Of a DNA stretch of 64,000 nucleotides, positions 14,737-63,091 are shown piece by piece. The DNA is from a virus, in IMG/VR virus record IMGVR_UViG_3300026097_001223, positions 64,001 through 128,000 of that record. The stretch is one strand, 5' to 3'. Each line of letters opens with the position of its first letter. Position 1 is the first letter of the stretch. The notes under the pieces are model-generated. The model saw nothing but the letters and a program-made list of their open reading frames with translations. It was not told the origin of the DNA and made no database searches. Made by a program: the position numbers and the translations under genes.

Positions 14737-15855
14737 ATGACGGATTCGGTGCACTGTCCTATTATACACGGTGGGTTGCAACTGTATTTTAAAAATACAG
14801 ACAACGCCAGTGCACTGGCAAATCACTGTTGTTTACGTGGTGATCTTTTTCCTATCACTGCCGGCGATGCAGTTTGGAATGATTCTAGACTGTGCAATCT
14901 ACGAGCTATAAATCTTAAAGAACACTGGGACCAAGGCTGTGCAAATTGCCGCAATCTTGAACGCAGTGGACTAGAAAGCTTTCGCACTGGCATGCTTCGC
15001 AAATTCGGCAAGCGCACTGACCTACCGGGTCCTCAACGACTTGACCTAATGTTTGATACCAGTTGTAATCTTGCGTGTCAAACATGTGGACCTGATGCCA
15101 GTACCACTTGGCAAAAGTATCAACTGGAACACGGTGACAGAACACAGCCTGTTGATCCAATAAACCGCTATCAAGAAGTGTCAGACACTTTAAAAAACAT
15201 AGATCTTAGCTGTTTACAACAAGTGGTATTCTGCGGCGGCGAAACACTGTTAGGCGGTGCACACTGGCAGGTAGCCGAGCTGTTAACTGAACTAGCTGAC
15301 CCGTCGAGGATCACCCTGAGCTTTCAAACCAATGGCACACAACCAATATCAAGCCGGTATTATGAATTGTGTAACAAGTTTGATCTTGTGAAACTGCATT
15401 TCAGTTTAGACGCTGTGGAAGAACAGTTTGAATATCTAAGATGGCCGGCTAGCTGGACACAGGTAACTGATAACATGTCCGAAATTAGAGATACTGCACC
15501 TGCTAACGTAATGTTTCTTGTCGAGGAAACAGTGAGCATTTTTAACTACGTGAATTTGCCTAGATTAAAAACCTGGATAAAAAACAACTTCTCCACCAAT
15601 CGAGAAGGGGATGTCACCGACCACACAAGACATCTAGCCAATGGGTTGTACAGTTTAGAAAACATGAGCAATCAATATGTGACTGCCATGCGTGAAACTC
15701 AGTACGGCAGTTTAATTCCCGACAATCATTTTGAAAACATTGCAAAAATACATTCAATGATTGGTATGATCAATGTTCATGATCGTCGTAGAAAACACGA
15801 TTGGAAAACAGTGTTTCCTGAAGTGGTTGAGCATTACAGCGATTATTTAAAATAG
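14737..15855 (+). CDS. Radical SAM protein with N-terminal SPASM/twitch-like Cys cluster
   Basis: HCPII...HCC, CNLACQTC, GGETLL, TNG, SLD. Confidence 0.85.
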   Translation: MTDSVHCPIIHGGLQLYFKNTDNASALANHCCLRGDLFPITAGDAVWNDSRLCNLRAINLKEHWDQGCANCRNLERSGLESFRTGMLRKFGKRTDLPGPQRLDLMFDTSCNLACQTCGPDASTTWQKYQLEHGDRTQPVDPINRYQEVSDTLKNIDLSCLQQVVFCGGETLLGGAHWQVAELLTELADPSRITLSFQTNGTQPISSRYYELCNKFDLVKLHFSLDAVEEQFEYLRWPASWTQVTDNMSEIRDTAPANVMFLVEETVSIFNYVNLPRLKTWIKNNFSTNREGDVTDHTRHLANGLYSLENMSNQYVTAMRETQYGSLIPDNHFENIAKIHSMIGMINVHDRRRKHDWKTVFPEVVEHYSDYLK

Positions 15856-42581: not shown

Positions 42582-43658
42582 ATGCACCCACGTGTAGGGT
42601 TCTGTTGCAAGTATTTGCATCCAGATCAAACTCAATCTAAAAAGCTGTTAGAAGAAATTCAGCGCCCATTAACTGAACGGTGTACAACTGTGGCCTGGCT
42701 TAATCGTCAAACTCGCGAAGATGCAGAACAGCGTCTTTGGGATCTCATGGTTCATAACACACAGGCATGTTTGAATCTGGTAAACTATGTAGGAGGATTA
42801 CCAAATGAGCTTCGAATGGTTCGACTGGGTAGTAATCAGTTGCCTATGTACACTGAGCCTAGCTGGCGCTATTTTTGGCAGTTACCTAGTGTACGTGAGT
42901 ATTGCGAAAAAGCATTTGCTCGTGTCGGTGACGCCGCTCGTAGACAGAATGTTAGGATCAGCTTTCATCCTGGGCAGTTTTGTGTGCTTGCTAGCGATAG
43001 TGATAGTATTGTAGAACGCAGTATAGAGGAGTTTGAATATCATGCCGATATGGCCAGGTGGATGGGTTACGGTCGTTCCTTCCAGGACTTTAAAATCAAC
43101 GTACACATATCGGGTCGAAAAGGTCCACAAGGCATCAAAGAGGCTCTCCCAAGACTCAGCACCGAAGCACGAAACTGCATCACAATCGAAAACGATGAAT
43201 GCGGATGGGGATTGGATGCCAGCCTCGAATTGGCTAAAGATTTGGCGCTCGTACTAGACATACATCATCATTGGGTAAGAGAAGGCGAATATATTGATGT
43301 GGATGACGATAGGGTTAAGCGTGTTATTGACAGCTGGCGTGGTGTACGCCCTGCATGTCATTACAGCGTGTCAAGGGAAGACTACTTGGATGGGCATTCA
43401 AGCACGGTCCGGCCGGATATGGCTGCACTGCTTGCTGCTGGATACAAAAAACAAAAACTGAGAGCGCACAGTGATTTCTATTGGAATCATGCTGTGAGCG
43501 AATGGGCTGCTACGTTCAGTGAATACTTTGATATTCAGTGCGAAAGCAAGATGAAAAATCTAGCCAGTCACCCGTTTGCTAAAGACTATGTGATGACAGC
43601 GGAATCAACGTGCGAAAGTCTTCGTCGCGAATCCGATCTAGCTCTTTGTTATAGTTAA
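42582..43658 (+). CDS. uvsE: UV-damage endonuclease
   Basis: RVGFCCK, RISFHPGQFCVLAS, NVHISG, ITIENDE, VLDIHHH, RAHSD. Confidence 0.92.
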   Translation: MHPRVGFCCKYLHPDQTQSKKLLEEIQRPLTERCTTVAWLNRQTREDAEQRLWDLMVHNTQACLNLVNYVGGLPNELRMVRLGSNQLPMYTEPSWRYFWQLPSVREYCEKAFARVGDAARRQNVRISFHPGQFCVLASDSDSIVERSIEEFEYHADMARWMGYGRSFQDFKINVHISGRKGPQGIKEALPRLSTEARNCITIENDECGWGLDASLELAKDLALVLDIHHHWVREGEYIDVDDDRVKRVIDSWRGVRPACHYSVSREDYLDGHSSTVRPDMAALLAAGYKKQKLRAHSDFYWNHAVSEWAATFSEYFDIQCESKMKNLASHPFAKDYVMTAESTCESLRRESDLALCYS

Positions 43659-44724
43659 CCTGTGTTTGCCACAGCGCAGGGTCAAACTTGTGCTGTGCAA
43701 TCTGCTTCCGAAGCTGTTCAAGCCATACACGGCTATCCTCAAAGCTTTCAACAGCAATAGTTTGATCTAAATTTTCTAGTACCATGGGTTTAAGATCGTC
43801 GGGCCAATTAACTGGATTCATAAACTCGGGCATCCACACAGATTTTGCAGTTTGCTTACATATATGTCCTCGGGCATGTTTTTCATGGCGTATGTCTGAT
43901 ATGTATTTTTGTAAAGGACCTAGATGCAATAGGTTGAGATTACTGACAGTGGTATTAAATACCACACTTTTTCCTACTTGAACAATCTTCTTGATATTTT
44001 TATCAACTTCTGTCCAGTTAGTGCCGTGTCTTATTATTTCGGCTTGTTCGCCTACAGCATCCAAACTGATTGCCCACGCTAGATAATATCCTAGCTTTTC
44101 TGACATTTCCTGCCAAAAGTCGTCAAACACACTGCCGTTTGTGATCATAACTATACGGCGATCCTTTTCTTTGGCGTTGGACAGTTGATACACAAGGTTT
44201 TTTACCTCGTCTATCAAGGTGGGTTCTCCACCGGCAAGTGTTACAATTTGCAGTTGTTCAATGTTGTCAGCAATCCAGGTTTGATTTTTGCTATTATTGA
44301 ATACCAACTTGCTGTTTACAGGAGGCTGTAGATTTTTTATATAGTCGCTTTGTTTTAAATCAGCTAACCAGGCACTGCTTGCACCTGCATAGCAACTACG
44401 ACACTTGAAATTACAAAGATTGTTACTGCGATAATCAAACTCAGTAATATTAGTTTCTGTATAAAAGTCAGGATGGTCCTCTAGACCTTTTTGTCTTGTA
44501 CTAGAAAACCCATTTTCTTCCTGTTTTTTGCAAAATCTGCAGTCGTTATCAACCTCGCCACGCAAAAACTTTTGTTGTAATTGCTCTAGTTCATCGCTAG
44601 CCAACCATTCGTCGATACTGCCAGTAAATCGTTTTGCGTAGCTACAGCAAGGTTTTACCCCATCGTGCTCGCTGTAAACACTGCGGAACGGCATCGGGCA
44701 ATACCATTGAGAATCGGACATCAT
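43579..44724 (-). CDS. Radical SAM protein with N-terminal SPASM/twitch-like Cys cluster
   Basis: YCPMPF...KPCC...CRFC, CNFKCRSC, AGGEPTL, TNGS, SLD. Confidence 0.85.
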   Translation of the reverse strand: MMSDSQWYCPMPFRSVYSEHDGVKPCCSYAKRFTGSIDEWLASDELEQLQQKFLRGEVDNDCRFCKKQEENGFSSTRQKGLEDHPDFYTETNITEFDYRSNNLCNFKCRSCYAGASSAWLADLKQSDYIKNLQPPVNSKLVFNNSKNQTWIADNIEQLQIVTLAGGEPTLIDEVKNLVYQLSNAKEKDRRIVMITNGSVFDDFWQEMSEKLGYYLAWAISLDAVGEQAEIIRHGTNWTEVDKNIKKIVQVGKSVVFNTTVSNLNLLHLGPLQKYISDIRHEKHARGHICKQTAKSVWMPEFMNPVNWPDDLKPMVLENLDQTIAVESFEDSRVWLEQLRKQIAQHKFDPALWQTQVNYNKELDRIRDEDFRTLIPLSSHSL

Positions 44725-47690: not shown

Positions 47691-47917
47691 CACCCCAAGA
47701 AATATTTGAATATCGACTGAAATGGAAGCCTGGCACTTGTGTAGCTGTGCACAGTGACTTGGAAAATCGTGCTAAAACTTGGTGCAATAAAAACGTGCCC
47801 AAGCATCAGTGGACCACAGTAGAATACACAGATGTGTATGAGCATACCTACTGTTTTGAGTCTGTTGAGGCTGCAGAACAGTTTAACATAGAGTTTCAAG
47901 ATTGGATAACAAACTAA
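47687..47917 (+). CDS. Hypothetical protein
   Basis: 76 aa, ATGA overlap. Confidence 0.65.
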   Translation: MTPQEIFEYRLKWKPGTCVAVHSDLENRAKTWCNKNVPKHQWTTVEYTDVYEHTYCFESVEAAEQFNIEFQDWITN

Positions 47918-49104
47918 GTTGCCCTTGGGCTGAACAAGGTTTAGCATTGCACAACACCGGCAGGGCTCTGCTGTGTTGTCACAGTCGTAGCTATTTAGAA
48001 GACGACAACGGTGATTGGATCTATTGGCACAGTCACACTCTTGATGATGCGTGGAACAGCAAAACACGTCATGAAATAATTGACAGTTTGGCACAAGGCA
48101 TTGAGCATCCAAACTGTGATGCATGTTGGCAAGAAGAACGTGTTGGCCGTAAAAGTCGTCGTATTGTAGCCAAGGAACAATTTGATTTGCCGCCGGCTGA
48201 CTCACCAAAACTAGTCGATCTTAAACTAGGCAACACCTGTAATCTTGCATGTACCATGTGCTGGCCTGAAGTAAGTTCAAAATGGCTTGCTGACTATTAT
48301 CATGTATACGAAGATCCAAATATTATCTACAGTGACTACAAACAACGCTGGGCTAGTATACAAAAAAGTTATGACCGAGAAAATCACCAGCTTTGGGACG
48401 ATTTAAAGCGCATTTTGCCAAATGCCGAACACTTGGATATTTTTGGTGCTGAGCCATTTTTGTTGGATAGACTATGGGATATACTAAAATGGAATGTAGA
48501 ATTAGGGCATAGCAAAAACCAAACTTTGCATATTAATACAAATACTACCATCTGGCGGGATGATTATGTTAATATCCTATCACATTATAAAAAAGTATCC
48601 GTGGATCTAAGCATAGACGCTACTGATCACTTATTTGAATACATACGTTATGGAGCTGAATGGCAGATTGTTCAAAAAAATATACAAAAATGGGCCGCTA
48701 TAAAAAAAACAAATAAAAATATTAATGTAGCACTGTGCGTGACTGTAACAAACACTAATGTGTTTGATCTAGATAATATATACTTAAAACTAAGAGAATA
48801 TGGTCTTGCCTTCTTCCTTAACATTGTTCATATGCCTGTGCATCAGTGTATTCGGAGTATGCCTAGCCAGCTGAAAACAATAATTAATAATAAATTACGA
48901 GATAATATTGACAACCTGGGATACAAACGTGAAGTAGAAAGTTTGTTAAATTTTATGATGCTGGACGACCCAGATCAAGAAGCCAATTGGCAAGAATGGT
49001 TGCGAAGCACATATGAGTTGGAAAAAAGAAGAGGCAATAGCTTGCGTAAGGCCGCTCCAGAATTTATCTCAGTGCTCGACCGACTGGGTTACCATCTTCC
49101 TTGA
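47902..49104 (+). CDS. Radical SAM protein with N-terminal SPASM/twitch-like Cys cluster
   Basis: SCPW...LCC...CDACW, CNLACTMC, FGAEPFL, NTN, SID. Confidence 0.85.
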   Translation: MDNKLSCPWAEQGLALHNTGRALLCCHSRSYLEDDNGDWIYWHSHTLDDAWNSKTRHEIIDSLAQGIEHPNCDACWQEERVGRKSRRIVAKEQFDLPPADSPKLVDLKLGNTCNLACTMCWPEVSSKWLADYYHVYEDPNIIYSDYKQRWASIQKSYDRENHQLWDDLKRILPNAEHLDIFGAEPFLLDRLWDILKWNVELGHSKNQTLHINTNTTIWRDDYVNILSHYKKVSVDLSIDATDHLFEYIRYGAEWQIVQKNIQKWAAIKKTNKNINVALCVTVTNTNVFDLDNIYLKLREYGLAFFLNIVHMPVHQCIRSMPSQLKTIINNKLRDNIDNLGYKREVESLLNFMMLDDPDQEANWQEWLRSTYELEKRRGNSLRKAAPEFISVLDRLGYHLP

Positions 49105-52794: not shown

Positions 52795-53001
52795 ATGTAT
52801 AATTTGTCAGTTCTTGAAGACTACTGCGAACAGTTGCGATCTGATGCAGAACGCAAGGTAGAGTGGACACTGAGCGATCACATCTCGCTGGAACGAGCAG
52901 TGCGTGTTCGCAACAGTTTGTATGCTATAGCAGACGAAATTGAAGAAGTTATTGCAGGTATTCGGGTAGCCGATAAGTATCTGCATGAAGATGACTCGTA
53001 A
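52795..53001 (+). CDS. Small hypothetical protein
   Basis: 68 aa, SD GAGGAG. Confidence 0.6.
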   Translation: MYNLSVLEDYCEQLRSDAERKVEWTLSDHISLERAVRVRNSLYAIADEIEEVIAGIRVADKYLHEDDS

Positions 53002-53431
53002 CAGAACTGTAGCGGCACTTTTTGCAGCTATAGCAGTTTACTTTTTTGTTTACAGCTTTCAATATCAACTAGGCAGTGCCAGTAGAATGGGCCCTGCCTA
53101 TTTTCCTATTATGACCAGTGTAAGTTTGTTTGCTGTGGCTGTGTGCATATGGCTGTTTGAAAACGATCATGCACCAGCCAGATTTGAATGGGACGTTTTC
53201 TCCGCAGGAGTGCCCATTGGTGCTATTTTGGTATTTGCAGTCAATCTTGAATTTCTCGGTTTTGCAATAACCACAATGTTGGTAACTCTGCTTACTGCTG
53301 TGAGCAAAGAAAACAGAAACCTACCACTCACACTGGGCACAGGCATTTTTCTAGTTGGCCTAGGTTGGGGAGTTTTTGTAAAGTTTCTTGATGTGTATCT
53401 GCCCATGTGGCCTGCTTTTTTATGGAATTAA
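52985..53431 (+). CDS. tctB: Tripartite tricarboxylate transporter small subunit TctB
   Basis: Four TMs, MGPAYFP, LGF..T, VF...L.V.LP. Directly upstream of tctA. Confidence 0.8.
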   Translation: MKMTRNRTVAALFAAIAVYFFVYSFQYQLGSASRMGPAYFPIMTSVSLFAVAVCIWLFENDHAPARFEWDVFSAGVPIGAILVFAVNLEFLGFAITTMLVTLLTAVSKENRNLPLTLGTGIFLVGLGWGVFVKFLDVYLPMWPAFLWN

Positions 53432-54918
53432 TTGACAACTTATATCTAGGATTTGCAACTGCACTCAGTGTTGAAAATATTTTCTACTGTTTTGTGGGTG
53501 TGTTTTTAGGCACCGCTGTGGGTGTTTTGCCTGGCCTCGGACCGCTGGCTGCAATAACCATGCTGTTGCCACTTACATACAGTTTCAATGATCCAAGCAG
53601 TGCTATTATCATGCTTGCTGGCATCTACTATGGGTGTCAGTATGGAGGAAGCACTGCCGCAATTCTAGCAAACATTCCCGGCGAAAGCAGTGCAGTGGTC
53701 ACTGTGGTAGACGGTTATCAAATGACCAAACAGGGTAGAGCTGGCACTGCACTGGTAACAGCGGCACTGAGCAGTTTTTTTGCTGGCACTGTTGCTACAC
53801 TGTTTATTGCTGTTGGTGCACCTGCTCTAGCCGAGGTAGCATTTGCGTTCGGTCCGCCTGACTATTTCAGTCTCATGTTTCTGGGACTTATACTGGCAGT
53901 GGCATTGAGCACAGGCAGTGTGCTAAAAAGTCTAGCAATGGTGATATTTGGTGTACTGATCGGTCTTATTGGCACAGACGTTACCACAGGCGTTGCACGA
54001 TTTGATTGGGGTGTACCAGAACTGTTCGATGGCATTCCATTTGTGGTAATTGCAATGGGACTGTTTGGTTTTGCTGAAATCATGTACAACCTTGAAAATC
54101 CACATGTGCGACAATCACTGAATAATCAACAGCCCACTCTTAGGTTATCTAACAAAGAACTCAGGCGAGCCGCTCCGGCAACAGTTAAAGGCACTGTGGT
54201 CGGTAGCTTTCTTGGACTGTTGCCAGGCAGTGGAGGAATCATTGCTAGCTTTGCTGCCTATGCATTAGAAAAAAGAACCAACAAAAAACATCACAGTGAA
54301 TTTGGTAAAGGCGCAATCGAAGGTGTAGCAGCTCCCGAAAGTGCAAACAATGCTGGCAGTCAAACCAGCTTCATTCCCATGCTGGTATTGGGTATACCTA
54401 CTACTCCTATCATGGCACTGATGATAGCCGCACTCTTAATACACCATGTAGTGCCTGGTCCTCAGATAGTCAGCACCAATCCCGAAGTTTTTTGGGGATT
54501 GATTGCCAGTATGTGGATAGGCAATCTGCTGTTGCTGGTTTTGAATCTGCCGTTGATTGGTATTTGGATACGCATGTTAAATATAAGTTATAATATACTG
54601 TACCCAATTATACTGATATTTGCATGCCTGGGCGTGTATGTGGTCACCAGCAATGTTGTTCATGTATTAATGACCGTTCCTTTTGCAGTGCTGGGTTATC
54701 TGTTTAAAAAATGGGAATGTGAACCCGCGCCATTGATGATGGGATTCATAGTAGGAGCAGCCATGGAAGAACATCTACGCAGGGCCATGACCATCAGCAA
54801 AGGTGATTGGATGGTATTTGTGGAAAGACCTATCAGCGCCACACTGTTGGCTATCGCAACAGCATCTTTGGTTGTTGTGGCAATTTACGTTGCAAGGAGA
54901 GTGCGTGTACATTCGTGA
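53422..54918 (+). CDS. tctA: Tripartite tricarboxylate transporter large subunit TctA
   Basis: GVLPGLGP, GCQYGGS...IPGESS...DGYQM...GRAG, VAAPESANNA, LGIP. Confidence 0.95.
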   Translation: MELIDNLYLGFATALSVENIFYCFVGVFLGTAVGVLPGLGPLAAITMLLPLTYSFNDPSSAIIMLAGIYYGCQYGGSTAAILANIPGESSAVVTVVDGYQMTKQGRAGTALVTAALSSFFAGTVATLFIAVGAPALAEVAFAFGPPDYFSLMFLGLILAVALSTGSVLKSLAMVIFGVLIGLIGTDVTTGVARFDWGVPELFDGIPFVVIAMGLFGFAEIMYNLENPHVRQSLNNQQPTLRLSNKELRRAAPATVKGTVVGSFLGLLPGSGGIIASFAAYALEKRTNKKHHSEFGKGAIEGVAAPESANNAGSQTSFIPMLVLGIPTTPIMALMIAALLIHHVVPGPQIVSTNPEVFWGLIASMWIGNLLLLVLNLPLIGIWIRMLNISYNILYPIILIFACLGVYVVTSNVVHVLMTVPFAVLGYLFKKWECEPAPLMMGFIVGAAMEEHLRRAMTISKGDWMVFVERPISATLLAIATASLVVVAIYVARRVRVHS

Positions 54919-55750
54919 AAAAAACGGCATAGATGATCTGTACGGATACAGTGTTGGCACGGTGTTAAATGATTGCGGACATGACGACAGTAAATTGATT
55001 GCAATGCTTATCCAAAAGGCAATGCGCGACTACAATGTCAATGTATGGTTATGTGATTTCACTGTGAAAAATTTACTTGAATATTCGCAGGCACAAGAAC
55101 GGTGCGGCGTAGCACAGGTGTATAATAATTACATTAATGATTTTATCCTAGGAAACAACTATACTCCCAGGCAATATGAATACCCGGCAGATTATGTAAT
55201 GGGTGCACAAGAGTTCGACGAAAGTGTTAGATTTTACAATGCTACAAAGTTTGCATATTTTTTAGAAAATCCTATCGACAAGTTCCGTGTACCGATTGCT
55301 TATAGTTATGGCGACAATAACACACTGTTAAGACACCCAGGTAACACACGCTACATGTCAATGATGGCAATGCCAGACAATACAGGTGTGCAATTGTTGA
55401 TTACGGATTTTGTAAAAAATAAACAGATTTTAGAACATGCAAAAGCACAGTGCACTAACTGTGTTAATCTTGCTGAGTGCACTGCACAAGAAATAGTTGA
55501 ACTATTTGATTTTAGTACGTACCACGGATTAAGTGTGCGATATAGTAATCTTGTAGGAATACAAGTGGTAGAATCTCACAGCCGATTAACAGAATTTTAC
55601 GAGCCTTTTATTATTTCTTACACTGGTTCTGAATTGTATGTTAACAAAACCTTGGTCGCACAATTACGTGTCGGTGAAAAAAATCATAAAGATTATTTTT
55701 ATATGCCTGGCACAAAACATGACTATTTGCAAATGGAATATGAGTTTTAA
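54905..55750 (+). CDS. Hypothetical protein
   Basis: Long open frame. GTG start at 54905 inferred. Confidence 0.55.
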   Translation: MYIREKNGIDDLYGYSVGTVLNDCGHDDSKLIAMLIQKAMRDYNVNVWLCDFTVKNLLEYSQAQERCGVAQVYNNYINDFILGNNYTPRQYEYPADYVMGAQEFDESVRFYNATKFAYFLENPIDKFRVPIAYSYGDNNTLLRHPGNTRYMSMMAMPDNTGVQLLITDFVKNKQILEHAKAQCTNCVNLAECTAQEIVELFDFSTYHGLSVRYSNLVGIQVVESHSRLTEFYEPFIISYTGSELYVNKTLVAQLRVGEKNHKDYFYMPGTKHDYLQMEYEF

Positions 55751-56912
55751 ATTTTTTATACCCAATGGCAAACTACTTCGGCAATCCATTGTGCCACAAT
55801 TTAATTTTTTAGATACACTTGAGTATTTGAACATTGAGTATACTGTAACCAATAGGCCAGAATCTGACAGTATTCTTTTAATTGTGCCGCTAAATGAAAT
55901 ACAAATTCGAGGCAACGACCACTGGGTCGAAGGCATAAAAAAATATTTCACAGATCATTCTTGGTCAGGTCCGGTGCTGATTTGGTACCCCGAGGAGCAG
56001 TTTGATTGGATATCCGGCGGACATATTTTAAATGAAATTGTAAAAAAGCTAGGTTATCCAAAACACAATGTTTTTTACGTTAGCGGAGATAAAACACCAG
56101 TTGAATCGGCTAACCTAGCTAGCGACAATGTTTTGTATTTTCCTTACTTTGCTTATCGTATATCAAGATTAACTGCTCCAACAAGCAAACAACTCAAGTC
56201 TGCTCAAAAATCTTTTATTTGTCCAATATGGCATGCGAGACCAGCAAGGCAATATCTACTGCATTATCTTTATAAAAATAATTTTTTAGATAAAGGATAC
56301 GTAAGCTTTGGGAGAAATAAGTATTCCACATTGGAGGTTTTAAAACAGTATTCCAGCAAATACTTACCAGCCAGCGAGCTAGAGCAAATTGCGGAAACCA
56401 TGACTCTGTTTTTGCCATTGGAAGAAAACAATTTTACTCCGCAATATCAATTGACAATCGATGACTCGGGTATGAGTCAAGACAAGGCATGGAGTCATCA
56501 GTGGTTGTTAGATCAATTGTATCCTTATATGAGATCCACAAAGGTTTATATTTCGCCGGAATCCGGGTGGAATTGGCAAGGGGACTTACCACACCCTACA
56601 GGATTTCTCACTGAAAAAACTTTTTTCGCTGTGTTAAGCAGAATGCCGTTTTTAATTCATGGCGAAAAACATTTAATAAAAACCATGCAAGATCTTGGCT
56701 ATGAAACATTTTCGGATCATGTAGATGAAAGCTACGATGAACACGACAGTATTCATCAACGTACATTGGCAATGCTCGATTCACTTAATCAATTTTGTGA
56801 TATTAGTGACATATCAGTGTTCGATGATATTGTCGAACACAATTACAATGTGCTGTTAACCAGCGACTATAAATCTATGTTAACTACTCAATTAGAAAAA
56901 ATACAGCCTTAA
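55740..56912 (+). CDS. Glycosyltransferase-like protein (paralogue family 3 of 3)
   Basis: LTEKTFFAVLSRMPFLIHGEKHLIKTMQDLGYETFSDHVDESYD. Confidence 0.6.
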   Translation: MSFKFFIPNGKLLRQSIVPQFNFLDTLEYLNIEYTVTNRPESDSILLIVPLNEIQIRGNDHWVEGIKKYFTDHSWSGPVLIWYPEEQFDWISGGHILNEIVKKLGYPKHNVFYVSGDKTPVESANLASDNVLYFPYFAYRISRLTAPTSKQLKSAQKSFICPIWHARPARQYLLHYLYKNNFLDKGYVSFGRNKYSTLEVLKQYSSKYLPASELEQIAETMTLFLPLEENNFTPQYQLTIDDSGMSQDKAWSHQWLLDQLYPYMRSTKVYISPESGWNWQGDLPHPTGFLTEKTFFAVLSRMPFLIHGEKHLIKTMQDLGYETFSDHVDESYDEHDSIHQRTLAMLDSLNQFCDISDISVFDDIVEHNYNVLLTSDYKSMLTTQLEKIQP

Positions 56913-56916
56913 TTGG

Positions 56917-56944
56917 TTGACAAACAAGTTGTTTAGTGTAAACT
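56917..56944 (+). promoter_or_regulatory. sigma70-type promoter for the tRNA-riboswitch-btuB transcript
   Basis: TTGACA-N16-TAAACT, 11 nt before the tRNA. Confidence 0.65.
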
Positions 56945-56955
56945 ATAAACAAGTT

Positions 56956-57032
56956 GGACCTATAGCTCAGTTGGTTAGAGCAGTGAACTCATAATTCATT
57001 GGCCCCTGGTTCGAGTCCAGGTGGGTCCACCA
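56956..57032 (+). tRNA. tRNA-CAU (Ile2/lysidine-type more likely than Met)
   Basis: Full cloverleaf: acceptor GGACCTA/TGGGTCC, loop CT-CAT-AA, encoded CCA. Body resembles bacterial ileX-type tRNAs. Confidence 0.85.
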
Positions 57033-57073
57033 ACTTATTCATAGCTGCAACTCGTAGTGCATAACTAAAACTA

Positions 57074-57227
57074 GGTACAGTTGAGGTCACCGTGAACATA
57101 GAGATTCATGGGTAATCGGGGAAGCAGTAAATCTGCACTGGCCTTGCAACGGTAGAGCGACACTGGGTCGCGAGTCCGAATGCCGTCCTCAATATTCTGG
57201 TACCGCAGAGCACAAGGTACTGCTCTG
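57074..57227 (+). ncRNA. Cobalamin riboswitch (compact, class II-like)
   Basis: GGGGAA-GCAG/CTGC T-loop arm, GCAACGGTA, GCGAC-ACTG-GTCGC, GAGTCCGAATGCC, long closing stem GGTAC..TTGAGG/CCTCAA..GTACC. Kissing loop CCTTG(57142-46)/CAAGG(57213-17). Upstream of btuB. Confidence 0.85.
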
Positions 57228-57249
57228 ACAACTTACAAAAAGGTACACA

Positions 57250-58860
57250 ATGAAAAAATCTATTCTCTCCATTGGCCTATTGGCCGTGTCTCTTTCTACG
57301 TCAGCAGAAACCACTGACATAACAATTTATGTTACTCGAACACCAGTTGAACAAAGCATTGACACCAGGAGTTATACTAGAGCGGACTCTTTAGAACAAC
57401 TGGAACAGTCTCCGGGTATTAATATTGTGCAGAGCGGACCGCGTGGACAAAATACCAGCATGTTTGCACGAGGCACAGAAAGTGACCATACACTGCTTGC
57501 TATCAACGGCATGCCTATCAAAGATCATAGCACTATATCTGGCAGTGATGACATTGGACAACACAGTTTGGCTGGTATTGATCAACTGTTGTTTATACGA
57601 GGTCCAGCCGGTAGCGCCTATGGGCCCAATGCTGTAGGAGGTGCTGTTGACTTTATCAGTCGCGGCACAGGCGACAGTGTATCAGCATCAACTGGTACCT
57701 ATGGTTATAAAAATCTGTATGGCAGTAAACGTTTTGCAAAGGATTCCTTTGCTGGTAGCATTGCTGTTGAAACAGAACGTGCCAATGGCATTGATGTTCA
57801 GGACAACGGTGATCAGGACAGCTACACCAAGAAAAACATAAACCTGTATGGCAGTTGGATGCTGGATCAAGGCGACTTGTACTTGAACTATATCCAGTCA
57901 GACAATAGCAGTGACCTAGATGGATGGAACGAAACCAGTAACTGGCAGTTTGATAACACACAACTTGGCTACGAAACACAAAGTGCTCGGATCGTCTACA
58001 ATCAAGCAAATCATAAACGCATCTATGATACTTCCAGTGTGTATCTCAGCTCTGACGCTAGACTGTTGACTGAAAAAACCTGGAATCAATGGACAGTGAG
58101 CCTAGAGCACAGCAATCATGAGTACGACAGCAACAGTCGAACTGAGCAAGGGGCAGCTGTTGCTTATAATGATCAGTGGCTAAGTGCCGAATTGCGATCC
58201 GATGACACTGAGCTAGGGTCATTTGCCAGCTGGAGACTGGGCGTTTCTCACAGTGGTTTGCGAGCCAGCGTCGCCAACGGATTTAGAACCCCCAGCCTCT
58301 ATGAAGTCTACGGTGATGATTTGTATGTAGAAGAAAACACAGGCCTGCAAGCAGAATATATCACTGCATATGAATTGGGATATAGAAACAGCTGGGTTGA
58401 TACTGCTTTGTTTTTCAACCAAGAAACAGACAGGATCACATACATCACTGATCCAGAGACCTATGTAGGACAGTACACAAACAACATCAAAGACACTGTT
58501 CGTACACACGGAGTTGAAACATCTCTTACCAAAACTGTGGACGATGTTACTGTGAATTACAACTATACCTATACCTGGAGTGATGCAGACAAGCTGAGAC
58601 AGCCAGCTCACATGCACAACCTTGCTCTTTTATATGGCAGTGTAACATATAGTGCACAGTATATAGGATCGCACCTGGACACTGACAGCAACACGTTTAC
58701 TACAGTGAACATGAATGATGTGCTGTTACAGAATTTGTCTTACAAGAAAAAATGGTTCACTGTGACGGTAAATAATATCACTGATCAACAGTATCAACGT
58801 CCAGATGGGTATCAACAATACGGACGCACTATCACATTAAAGGCAGATTATGAATTCTAA
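57250..58860 (+). CDS. btuB: TonB-dependent outer-membrane receptor, BtuB-like
   Basis: Signal peptide, plug PGINIVQSGPRGQNTSMFARGTESDHTLLAING, IRGP...YGPNAVGGAV, C-terminal NITDQQY...GY...GR...YEF. Confidence 0.88.
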   Translation: MKKSILSIGLLAVSLSTSAETTDITIYVTRTPVEQSIDTRSYTRADSLEQLEQSPGINIVQSGPRGQNTSMFARGTESDHTLLAINGMPIKDHSTISGSDDIGQHSLAGIDQLLFIRGPAGSAYGPNAVGGAVDFISRGTGDSVSASTGTYGYKNLYGSKRFAKDSFAGSIAVETERANGIDVQDNGDQDSYTKKNINLYGSWMLDQGDLYLNYIQSDNSSDLDGWNETSNWQFDNTQLGYETQSARIVYNQANHKRIYDTSSVYLSSDARLLTEKTWNQWTVSLEHSNHEYDSNSRTEQGAAVAYNDQWLSAELRSDDTELGSFASWRLGVSHSGLRASVANGFRTPSLYEVYGDDLYVEENTGLQAEYITAYELGYRNSWVDTALFFNQETDRITYITDPETYVGQYTNNIKDTVRTHGVETSLTKTVDDVTVNYNYTYTWSDADKLRQPAHMHNLALLYGSVTYSAQYIGSHLDTDSNTFTTVNMNDVLLQNLSYKKKWFTVTVNNITDQQYQRPDGYQQYGRTITLKADYEF

Positions 58861-59338
58861 TATACGACTTTTTTTATTTTTAGCAGGGGCACTGTTTTTA
58901 TTTAGAATTGTGCCGCATCCTCCAAACTTTACACCTGTTATCGCGGCAACTGTGTTTGCCGCGTGTGCAGGACAGCGTTTTTGGGAAACCATGGCTGTGG
59001 TGCTACTGGCAATGTTTGTGAGTGATTTGTTTTTAGGATTACATGCTGGTATGCTGTGGGTATACGCCAGCCTGGTACTTGTGTTCGTGACCTCAAGGTA
59101 TATGAGTTTACTTGCAAGCACACTGATTGGACCTACAGTATTTTTTGTGTCTAGTAATTTTGCAGTATGGTTGAGCGGATGGTATCCTATGACCCTTGAA
59201 GGGTTGATTACTTGTTATGTGGCTGCCATACCATTTTATGCGACCAGCTTGACTGCGACAGTGTTCTATGTTATATTATTTAAAATAATGCAACGTTATC
59301 TCGCAGTAGCTCAGCAGGATAGAGCATCGGACTTCTAA
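58850..59338 (+). CDS. ECF S-component-like membrane transporter (DUF6580-like), probable cobalamin carrier
   Basis: RIVPHPPNFTPVIA, SDL..G, FFVSSNFAVW, Y.....G...CYVAAIPF. Confidence 0.75.
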   Translation: MNSNIRLFLFLAGALFLFRIVPHPPNFTPVIAATVFAACAGQRFWETMAVVLLAMFVSDLFLGLHAGMLWVYASLVLVFVTSRYMSLLASTLIGPTVFFVSSNFAVWLSGWYPMTLEGLITCYVAAIPFYATSLTATVFYVILFKIMQRYLAVAQQDRASDF

Positions 59339-59376
59339 TCCGAGGGTCGCAGGTTCGAATCCTGCCTGCGAGGCCA
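59300..59376 (+). tRNA. tRNA-Arg(UCU)
   Basis: CTCGCAG/CTGCGAG acceptor, TCGGA-CTTCTAA-TCCGA, GGTTCGAATCC, CCA. Confidence 0.92.
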
Positions 59377-62059: not shown

Positions 62060-63091
62060 ATGCAATTATCTGATATACAAAGCTTACAATGTGAAATTAC
62101 ATCCTACTGTAATGCAAGATGTCCGCAGTGCCCTCGTTTTGATCAATATGGTAATCTTTATCCTGGCTTGACATTGCAGCACTGGAATCACCGTGATATT
62201 TTAGCAAACATAGATCTTGATCAACTAACCGGTCTAAACTTGGTAAGGATAGAAGGCGACAAAGGCGATCCTGTGATGCATCCAGATTGTTACGATATTG
62301 TAAAATTCTTTGTGCAAGCTCCTAGTAAGCCACTGGTAAGATTGGTTACAAATGGCAGTATTCAAACAGAAGATTGGTGGCACAATCTAGGTGAACTCAG
62401 TAATGAAAATAACTTTGATGTGATTTTTAGCATTGACGGGTTGGAAGATACAAATCATATCTACCGTATAAACACCGACTACAATAAAATCATGAGAAAT
62501 GCCCGTGCATTCATAAATGCGGGCGGGCAAGCTATTTGGAAGTTTTTGGTCTTTAAGCACAACGAACATCAGCTTGATACAATTACCACTCTTGCACAAA
62601 CCATGGGCTTTGCTGCAATTCAAGTTAGAAAGGCCGACGACTATAGATTTCTTGGCAACAAAAGTTTTGTTGTTTACGATAAAGGAAACCCAGTTGGAGA
62701 AATTGAACCTAGCAATATACCAAGAGAACAACTGTTGTATTTTAAATGGTTTAACCAAGAAAAAGAATTTATTCCTAGACATGAGATAGACAAACATTGT
62801 GTTTGGATGAGTCAAGGTAAAATGAACATTACGTTTCAAGGCTATCTCATGCCATGCTGTATGATGCATCATGTGCTCAATGACGTAGACAAAGATCTGG
62901 TAAAACAGACTGTTGAACTCATGCACAATCCCAATGATTTACTTTTGACAAAACACACCGTCGGTACTATACTGAATAGTAAATTTTATAAATATAATCT
63001 AGAAACTCATCTCCAAAGTACTAACCTGCATCCAATTTGCGAAACCAACTGTAGATCACAGATAAAGGACAAACTAATTGCAACTGACTAA
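62060..63091 (+). CDS. Radical SAM protein with C-terminal SPASM-like Cys
   Basis: CNARCPQC, GDKGDP, VTNGS, SIDG, HCVW...MPCC...C...C. Paralogue of 31023. Confidence 0.85.
   Translation: MQLSDIQSLQCEITSYCNARCPQCPRFDQYGNLYPGLTLQHWNHRDILANIDLDQLTGLNLVRIEGDKGDPVMHPDCYDIVKFFVQAPSKPLVRLVTNGSIQTEDWWHNLGELSNENNFDVIFSIDGLEDTNHIYRINTDYNKIMRNARAFINAGGQAIWKFLVFKHNEHQLDTITTLAQTMGFAAIQVRKADDYRFLGNKSFVVYDKGNPVGEIEPSNIPREQLLYFKWFNQEKEFIPRHEIDKHCVWMSQGKMNITFQGYLMPCCMMHHVLNDVDKDLVKQTVELMHNPNDLLLTKHTVGTILNSKFYKYNLETHLQSTNLHPICETNCRSQIKDKLIATD

Follow-up and report, generated by a model that had tools for sequence, protein, structure and literature searches.

Can a phage carry its own metabolite-governed machinery for the import of vitamin B12 (cobalamin)? 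The question is raised by IMG/VR virus record IMGVR_UViG_3300026097_001223, a linear record of 182,329 bp, of which bases 64001-128000 were analyzed here (64,000 nucleotides, hereafter "the window"). An earlier note, made from the letters of the window, had described positions 56917-59376 as a riboswitch-controlled B12 uptake module lying between two tRNA genes. In this region we recognize, all on the plus strand, a leader with a candidate cobalamin aptamer, a gene for a BtuB-like TonB-dependent outer-membrane receptor and, overlapping it, a gene for a membrane protein of the DUF6580 family (PF20221). Sequence comparisons, structural models and analogy with bacterial systems, taken together, make it fairly probable that this cassette serves the phage as an auxiliary operon for taking up cobalamin, with a leader that gives cobalamin feedback repression.

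The record, for which CheckV estimates a completeness of ~52%, encodes a T4-type major capsid protein Gp23 (329.7 bits). The genes of the window include NrdA and NrdB of a class Ia ribonucleotide reductase (the class that the earlier note had assigned), DnaB-like and other helicases, an endonuclease, tail-spike-like proteins, several radical-SAM proteins, five tRNAs and NadE. GC content is flat over the window (0.38-0.45; ~41% for the phage). Given Gp23, the reductase, the helicases, the tail-spike-like genes and the even GC, the source DNA is classed as that of a large marine T4-like phage, with the cassette situated in its tRNA region, in keeping with the phage origin that had been claimed. 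The cassette looks much like certain bacterial operons (riboswitch, receptor, DUF6580, sometimes then a tRNA), as would be expected if a piece of host chromosome had been joined to a phage contig during assembly, a concern that the earlier note had itself raised. Such an artefact is exceedingly improbable, as seven or more independent assemblies from different samples (ENA, Logan and JGI), representing two diverged lineages, all have the order tRNA-Met, leader, receptor, DUF6580, tRNA-Arg, an 82-amino-acid gene and nadE. Moreover, no GC shift is seen across the cassette region, and phage genes lie on both of its sides in the record; the chimeric host contig was therefore rejected. The close lineage has a receptor with 93% protein identity to that of the window, and the diverged lineage shows 67% identity in the receptor and 82% in the DUF6580 protein. 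Hence, host-like metabolic genes are present inside a bona fide phage genome and are kept among related phages, as befits auxiliary metabolic genes.

The receptor gene (57250-58860) encodes a protein of 536 amino acids, which the earlier note had likened to BtuB. Its open reading frame (ORF) begins with MKKSILSIGLLAVSLSTSA, a typical signal peptide, making the ATG at 57250 very likely the correct start, and this is followed by a TonB-box-like segment, DITIYVT (residues 23-29), where E. coli BtuB has DTLVV. The protein matches the Pfam Plug domain (1.3e-12), and its best NCBIfam family is TIGR01779 (TonB-B12), at 123.8 bits against an equivalog cut-off of 599.7 that is not reached. NF007926 likewise remains below its cut-off (91.1 against 836), and siderophore receptor families score 47 bits or less. 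The best PDB sequence is E. coli BtuB (7.8e-19), with Cir, FepA and PfeA at 2.5e-7 or weaker. The AlphaFold2 (AF2) model displays a plug and a complete barrel (pLDDT 85.5, pTM 0.84), and its top 12 Foldseek matches are all E. coli BtuB (E 3e-31, TM 0.81). In a maximum-likelihood tree, whose rows were chosen partly for an adjoining DUF6580 gene, the receptor shares a clade, with 100% support, with receptors of Pelagibacteraceae and of viruses that are encoded behind AdoCbl-II (adenosylcobalamin-II) riboswitches, and FepA and FhuA lie outside it. A siderophore receptor, which the earlier note had allowed for, was rejected on these grounds, since BtuB is the best match by family, sequence and fold, and FepA and FhuA do not join the clade. 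E. coli BtuB (PDB: 1NQE-1NQH, 2GSK) is both the nearest solved structure and the nearest PDB sequence, and shares the TonB box, plug and barrel with the phage protein, although identity is only ~21%, the phage protein is shorter (536 against 614 amino acids) with shorter loops, and the two belong to different clades of the tree. The assignment as BtuB-like thus holds, and from sequence and model the protein is a predicted cobalamin receptor.

The second gene (58850-59338) overlaps the receptor gene by 11 nucleotides and specifies a protein of 162 amino acids with six helices, a predicted inner-membrane cobalamin carrier. The DUF6580-like membrane carrier of the earlier note is here placed in the family proper (Pfam E 2.9e-32; 112.6 bits against a gathering threshold of 27). 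The family motifs RxxPHPPNFTP and FFxxTNFGxW are retained, with R19, P22, H23, N26, F98, N103 and W107 all present; across 45 DUF6580 sequences these seven residues are invariant along with Y112 and F129, and there is no invariant cysteine. The AF2 model (pLDDT 89.7) shows an S-component fold, with Z 10-12.8 to RibU, ThiT, FolT, PanT, CbiM and BtuM over ~145-155 of the 162 residues. The best match is BtuM (PDB: 8ovv; Z 12.8, root-mean-square deviation 3.5 over 150 residues), with RibU, FolT and ThiT statistically tied to it at Z 11-12. As the Foldseek E-values are weak, all being above 0.3, the fold assignment draws on the VIA Z-scores. BtuM of Thiobacillus denitrificans (PDB: 6FFV, 8C7P, 8OVV) resembles the DUF6580 protein not only in the six-helix S-component fold but also in being a small solitary inner-membrane protein encoded beside btuB under a cobalamin riboswitch with no energy-coupling factor (ECF) module. 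Sequence similarity between the two is not detectable, a search of PDB sequences with the DUF6580 protein giving no match at E values up to 10, BtuM included, and the structural alignment has 14% identity. BtuM is said, after work of Rempel and coworkers in 2018, to bind cobalt through a cysteine, a residue for which DUF6580 has no invariant counterpart. The DUF6580 protein is accordingly BtuM-like in modeled fold and genomic context and is not a member of the BtuM family. We found no paper that mentions the DUF6580 family.

What links DUF6580 to B12 is the riboswitch association of its loci. Cobalamin-clan riboswitches at Rfam gathering level occur within 2.5 kb in 20 of 40 bacterial DUF6580 loci, the second batch of 20 having been partly picked for the presence of a receptor, and five Pelagibacteraceae loci (L050, L068, L070, L095, L100) have the riboswitch, receptor and DUF6580 in the phage order. 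The genomes with DUF6580 include SAR11-labelled, SAR86, SAR116 and Bacteroidota representatives. Among viruses, DUF6580 is present on at least 99 IMG/VR contigs, and the survey of related phages that the earlier note had proposed shows that, among 80 viral DUF6580 loci, 35 have an adjoining BtuB-like receptor and 17 an AdoCbl-II riboswitch. A DNA pattern for the aptamer core gave no match in IMG/VR in its strict form and 29 stretches in a looser form, of which six loci are true riboswitches and most are chance matches in coding DNA. The contigs thus recovered bear bona fide AdoCbl-II riboswitches (40.7-78.5 bits) directly before DUF6580. One of them, L124, derives from an independent T4-like phage (terminase, gp32, UvsX and UvsY are encoded) in which a 78.5-bit AdoCbl-II riboswitch is accompanied by DUF6580 and the receptor. 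The order in these riboswitch-bearing phages is riboswitch, DUF6580, receptor. The receptors closest to that of the window come from L142-type phages (E 1e-72 to 1e-77), which have the same receptor-first order; among the viral loci examined, this order is combined with a (divergent) riboswitch in the window lineage only. DUF6580 is absent from 50,697 deposited phage records, in which the receptor matches only apparent bacterial contigs or short unannotated fragments, and a search of IMG/VR for the receptor by peptide patterns found nothing. No riboswitch was found in the receptor leader of the bacterial locus L016, and an L018-type phage has no room for one.

The pairing of receptor and carrier bears on an alternative in which the receptor serves mainly in phage-phage or phage-host conflict, with B12 import being secondary. 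It might then be a decoy or stand in as a replacement receptor, take part in excluding superinfecting phages, or soak up colicin-like toxins or rival phages that use BtuB. Phages and colicins classically exploit BtuB as a receptor (PMC8624392), and the phage protein sits on a long branch and, at 536 amino acids against 575-640 in its relatives, has shortened loops, as might befit such a role. We nevertheless consider this explanation improbable: the receptor is always paired, through the 11-nucleotide translational coupling, with an inner-membrane carrier of the B12 regulon for which a decoy would have no need, its TonB box and complete plug are kept, and a B12-type leader is retained.

The leader contains a compact aptamer (57074-57204) that is matched by RF00174 and RF01689, below their gathering thresholds, and by a reciprocal model described below. 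In the structure derived from the Rfam alignment it comprises P1a (57074-78/57200-04), P1b (57081-86/57187-92), a P3 hairpin (57090-96/57105-11), a junction helix (57117-19/57183-85), P4 (57124-27/57133-36), P5 with its loop L5 (57139-40/57147-48), P6 (57150-52/57176-78) and a mini P6 extension (57157-61/57167-71). The core motifs GGGGAAG, CAACGGUA and GAGUCCGAAUGCC are kept, so that the clan core, namely GGGAA in J3/4, CAACGGUA and the B12-box-like GUCCGAAUGCC, is present. A 7-bp hairpin forms P3 in place of the 7-nucleotide bulge of AdoCbl-II, and a 5-bp hairpin replaces the large P6 extension of RF00174 (11 nucleotides against 64 in that model); the architecture is in these respects intermediate between the Rfam models. 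The earlier note had held that all helices of the aptamer pair, the kissing loop included, and this is borne out, as 47 of 47 proposed pairs form in all three leader variants (window, L002-type and L007-type), with pairing in only 32-40% of cells when partners are slid by 1-3 columns. Compensatory changes from G-C to A-U on both sides are seen in two pairs and wobble changes in three.

Two covariance models built in opposite directions bear on the homology of this aptamer. The first, R1, was constructed from the phage leaders alone; in 493 kb of loci gathered for other reasons it gave 10 matches at E <= 1, nine of them exactly on cobalamin riboswitches at Rfam gathering level and the tenth at a locus outside the Rfam scans, and in 483 kb of viral loci its four matches are all true AdoCbl-II sites. 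The second, R2, was constructed from ten bona fide AdoCbl-II aptamers, with 14 of the 17 riboswitch-bearing viral loci left out of its building. It matches the window leader (57098-57193) at 22.8 bits, the L002 leader at 22.1 and the L007 leader at 32.2, and all its remaining matches are strong true riboswitches, with nothing spurious. This, taken together with the conserved core, suggests that the leader is very probably a diverged member of the cobalamin-riboswitch clan.

Downstream of the aptamer is a candidate expression platform. The L5 loop, CCUUG (57142-57146), the predicted 5' partner of a kissing loop, is complementary to CAAGG (57213-57217) in the loop of the P13 hairpin (57206-57227; CAGAGCA/UGCUCUG, loop CAAGGUAC), and both elements are invariant in the three variants. 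P13 appears in the minimum-free-energy and centroid folds, and retains all seven of its pairs, with C-G to U-G as the sole stem change. The Shine-Dalgarno sequence AAGG (57240-57243) and the ATG start at 57250 follow (57240-57252). No intrinsic terminator is found between the aptamer and the start codon, and P13 is not followed by a U-tract, which would leave translation, mRNA stability or Rho as the means of control. In env8HyCbl (RF01689), cobalamin binding stabilizes the L5-L13 kissing loop with the ribosome site in L13, an established case of translational control (PMC5028336), and it is by analogy with such systems that we infer the direction and mechanism of switching in the phage.

Under the favored reading, transcription would start at a conserved sigma70-like promoter of the early type and run through tRNA(CAU), the leader, the receptor, DUF6580 and tRNA-Arg. 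The receptor, with its signal peptide and TonB box, would depend on the Sec and BAM machineries of the host for export and insertion and on host TonB-ExbBD for energy, moving cobalamin or a related corrinoid into the periplasm. From there the DUF6580 protein, as a solitary S-component-like carrier in the style of BtuM, would take it over the inner membrane. As cobalamin accumulates, its binding to the aptamer would dock L5 (CCUUG) on the L13 bases CAAGG in the hairpin that immediately precedes the ribosome site, lowering translation initiation and secondarily mRNA stability, a feedback repression comparable to that of bacterial btuB. The likely benefit would be the supply of host or phage B12-dependent enzymes during infection.

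Several results weigh against this interpretation, most of them concerning the switch. At gathering level Rfam reports only tRNAs over the leader region and no cobalamin riboswitch, so that the Infernal check suggested by the earlier note succeeds only below threshold. A sensitive scan gives a full-length RF00174 match (57067-57205) of 29.2 bits against a gathering threshold of 31.5 (E 1.3e-5 local, 1.1e-6 for the whole record), RF01689 (AdoCbl-variant, now AdoCbl-II) reaches 19.2 bits against 36.5 at the same place, and RF01482 has no match on the leader. By the gathering rule the leader is thus not a member of the Rfam clan (CL00101: RF00174, RF01689, RF01482). Rfam thresholds therefore miss the diverged aptamer, which context and reciprocal models recover. 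With no more than three distinct variants of the leader, covariation is statistically weak, the observed values being attained in 51 of 500 shuffles. The leader also folds with an energy no better than that of shuffled sequences (z -1.03), and its L4 loop falls two bases short of the consensus T-loop. In the platform, the Shine-Dalgarno sequence lies 6 nucleotides before the ATG and 12 nucleotides 3' of P13, that is, outside L13, which bears on the route from docking to the ribosome site. A helix that might sequester it was sought by eye, and only a 5-bp GUACC/GGUAC and a 4-bp ACUU/AGGU pairing are possible, neither of them convincing. The loop-loop helix of RF01689 has two strictly conserved bulged purines that are needed for ligand dependence (Polaski et al. 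2016, PMC5028336); the 5-bp kissing loop of the window is perfectly Watson-Crick and has no such purines, which means that docking could be constitutive. No riboswitch is detectable in the L142-type phage cassettes, pointing to a switch that is dispensable for phages. Finally, the 182-kb record (~52% of the genome) has no match to the CbiQ/EcfT families, no TonB and no B12-binding domain (PF02310), and no B12-dependent enzyme that might be the beneficiary was identified in it. As neither EcfT nor TonB is found there, the carrier would act alone like BtuM, and the receptor would need the TonB of the host. Of the "ECF S component" of the earlier note, it is the six-helix fold that is supported, the best match being the solitary BtuM.

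These observations give substance to a rival in which the uptake genes work but the leader, while descended from a cobalamin riboswitch, is a relic or constitutive element that no longer switches, either because L5 and L13 dock without ligand or because the ribosome site has moved out of L13, leaving expression to the phage promoter alone. The perfect kissing loop without bulged purines, the sub-threshold Rfam scores, the shortened L4 and the switchless sister cassettes of the L142 type would all be in line with it, as would the sequence AAGGUAC, which is present twice, in L13 and at the true Shine-Dalgarno site 26 nucleotides downstream, and is suggestive of a ribosome site that has been shifted. 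Between the two phage lineages, however, identity is 89% in the aptamer and 80% in the platform, against 70% in the receptor gene and 64% in the upstream spacer, and each helix substitution preserves pairing, in P13 too. This conservation and preserved pairing indicate ongoing selection on the RNA structure rather than decay, and we regard loss of switching as unlikely, though deserving of serious attention.

It is also conceivable that the module imports a substrate other than cobalamin, such as cobinamide or an unrelated cofactor, which the leader would sense. The distance of the receptor from known families (124 bits against a cut-off of 600, and the low identity to E. coli BtuB), the lack of any characterized DUF6580 protein or paper found on the family, and an aptamer whose L4 and B12 box differ from the consensus would accommodate such a substrate. 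We give it little credence, as all three parts separately indicate the B12 regulon, and the corrin-contacting core of GGGAA, CAACGGUA and GUCCGAAUGCC is kept. A more specific combination of the favored elements is possible, though decidedly tentative: the leader might represent a working, as yet unclassified subtype of cobalamin riboswitch, defined by the P3 hairpin, the mini P6 hairpin, the short L4, the perfect L5-L13 kissing loop and a decoy copy of the ribosome site, which throttles the two-membrane import of the phage by corrinoid level, with DUF6580 proteins being solitary B12 transporters that perhaps bind cobalt via His23.

Several known systems can be set beside the cassette. Like the phage leader, the E. 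coli btuB leader (RF00174) has a cobalamin-clan aptamer ahead of the gene for a TonB-dependent receptor, and neither leader has an intrinsic terminator, so that control is probably translational in both. In contrast to E. coli, which relies on a separate btuCDF, the lytic-type phage encodes the receptor followed by DUF6580. The phage aptamer also lacks the large P6 extension of the E. coli leader. The AdoCbl-II class (RF01689; env8HyCbl, PDB: 4FRN family; Johnson 2012, Polaski 2016, PMC5028336) is, like the phage leader, marine, compact and devoid of a peripheral P6 domain, and shares GGGAA, CAACGGUA, GUCCGAAUGCC and, by prediction, the L5-L13 kissing loop. The phage leader differs from this class in scoring 19-23 bits, in the P3 and P6-loop hairpins and the shortened L4 noted above, in its fully Watson-Crick kissing loop, and in having the Shine-Dalgarno sequence outside L13. 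It also lacks the long downstream domain found in SAR11-type and viral examples, which we observed as a strongly conserved region ~70 nucleotides after the AdoCbl-II aptamers, beyond the 81-nucleotide Rfam model, in eight loci (L050, L068, L070, L095, L100, L011, L114, L124). This domain reads AGUCC.CUGU...GGCCAGGAAAAGUCU...CAG.GGCAU, its CAGGAA is complementary to UUCCUG of L5, and it probably includes the real L13 and expression platform of the marine AdoCbl-II class.

The Pelagibacteraceae operons (from SAR11-labelled single-amplified or metagenome-assembled genomes) are identical to the phage cassette in gene order and families, with receptors in the same clade and a tRNA sometimes after DUF6580. 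Unlike the phage cassette they are chromosomal, with riboswitches of 77-96 bits and receptors only ~25% identical to that of the phage. Both the GC content of the phage (~41%) and the architecture of its leader speak against recent copying of the cassette from such genomes. The IMG/VR phage cassettes (L124/L114 T4-like, L136-L141 and L142-type) and the pelagimyophages are, like the source of the window, marine and T4-like with a BtuB-like receptor and DUF6580. A survey of pelagimyophages lists a "TonB-dependent vitamin B12 receptor" as an auxiliary gene in its supplement and found no riboswitches in these phages (Zaragoza-Solas 2020, PMC7029224). Glutamine riboswitches of marine phages (Melnitz, Mosig and cyanophages; PMC9004378) constitute another case of riboswitches in T4-like phages of streamlined marine bacteria, though their ligand class and regulated gene are different; the same paper describes riboswitches as rare in phages and mentions a cobalamin riboswitch in the host only. 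We found no paper describing a phage-borne cobalamin riboswitch. The remark of the earlier note that such a module is rarely described is consequently apt for the switch and less so for the genes, given the B12 receptor of the pelagimyophage survey and the wide occurrence of DUF6580 on viral contigs.

The two tRNA genes that the earlier note had placed at the ends of the unit were both recovered. The upstream one (56956-57032), with anticodon CAU, is called Met (ARAGORN; Rfam tRNA, 71.2 bits) and is 99-100% conserved in relatives. It is preceded by a candidate sigma70-like promoter, TTGACA-16 nucleotides-TAAACT (56917-56944; 10 of 12 matches), whose -35 motif GTTGACAAA is the same in the leader of the window and in those of the L002 and L007 types. 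The sigma70 promoter of the earlier note thus has a conserved counterpart in the sequence, but shuffling shows no enrichment of sites of this kind in the region (9 found against 7.2 expected), and its function is presumed from sequence. The spacer between tRNA-Met and the aptamer (window 57033-57067; L002 4187-4221; L007 444-479) forms a small hairpin with lineage-specific sequence and preserved pairing, the pairs being CUGCA...UGCAG in one lineage and GGUUGU...ACGACC in the other. In the L007 lineage a perfect TATAAT lies ~12 nucleotides before the aptamer and may be a second promoter.

At the other end, tRNA-Arg(UCU) (59300-59376; ARAGORN, Rfam) is entered by the DUF6580 ORF over 39 nucleotides (59300-59338), with the TAA stop in the anticodon-loop region; its 5' half supplies the last 13 codons of the ORF and the stop codon. 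This overlap is retained in L002 and L007, and RNase P release of the tRNA would strip the DUF6580 mRNA of its stop codon. As the Pfam match stops at residue 145 of 162, the C-terminal tail is probably dispensable. In bacteria, a tRNA is found ~20-150 nucleotides downstream of DUF6580 in SAR116, Levibacter, SAR86 and Pelagibacteraceae genomes (tRNA-Asp in L024, L044, L054 and L073; tRNA-Ala in L093; tRNA-Ser in L050). This adjacency recalls the phage cassette with its flanking tRNAs, a hint that the site of acquisition of the cassette is marked by tRNA genes.

Several neighboring genes and related loci deserve mention. Directly before the cassette is an ORF of 424 amino acids (window 55638-56912) with no family match; the otherwise syntenic L002 has no counterpart of it and shows a 281-amino-acid gene followed by tRNA-Met. 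Just upstream, TctB and TctA, membrane subunits of the tripartite tricarboxylate transporter, are encoded at 52985-54918 and are also present in L002, with no TctC seen close by. The window further encodes four radical-SAM proteins (14737-15855, 43579-44724 on the minus strand, 47902-49104 and 62060-63091), of which one has SPASM and none a detected B12-binding domain. DUF6552 lies directly after a BtuB-like receptor in the bacterial locus L016 (7755-7985) and 3.3 kb downstream of the cassette in the L007/L013/L014 phage lineage (L007 6031-6258), and may be a further member of the B12-related neighborhood. In L117 (1509-2789), a putatively viral and very large IMG/VR contig of 478,840 bp, the ORF behind the 40.7-bit AdoCbl-II riboswitch has an N-terminal-methylation (pilin-type) motif after DUF6580, representing either a fusion or two read-through genes. 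In the phage-like contigs L008-L010 (5001-5501; with DnaB helicase, HNH and CN hydrolase), DUF6580 stands alone after a 127-amino-acid ORF, without a receptor.

That btuB is under the control of cobalamin riboswitches and that B12 receptors occur as auxiliary genes of phages was already known; what is new here is the sub-threshold aptamer, the unusual platform, and a phage cassette in which the receptor-first order goes together with a retained switch. The sea holds little B12, and many marine microbes are limited by it in their growth. By installing B12 importers in the outer as well as the inner membrane, a phage would redirect this key micronutrient into infected cells, and a retained B12-type switch would show a virus keeping metabolite feedback on an auxiliary gene as opposed to plain overexpression. 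The same observations add to the evidence for DUF6580 as a major unrecognized family of B12 carriers, in bacteria as well as on viral contigs. Should the tentative combined reading set out above be true, the virus would be making a metabolite-dependent decision over an auxiliary gene, and DUF6580 would represent an uncharacterized and very widespread family of solitary B12 transporters. On the whole, the sequence evidence suggests that the virus probably boosts B12 uptake in the cells it infects and may tune that uptake to the B12 supply.

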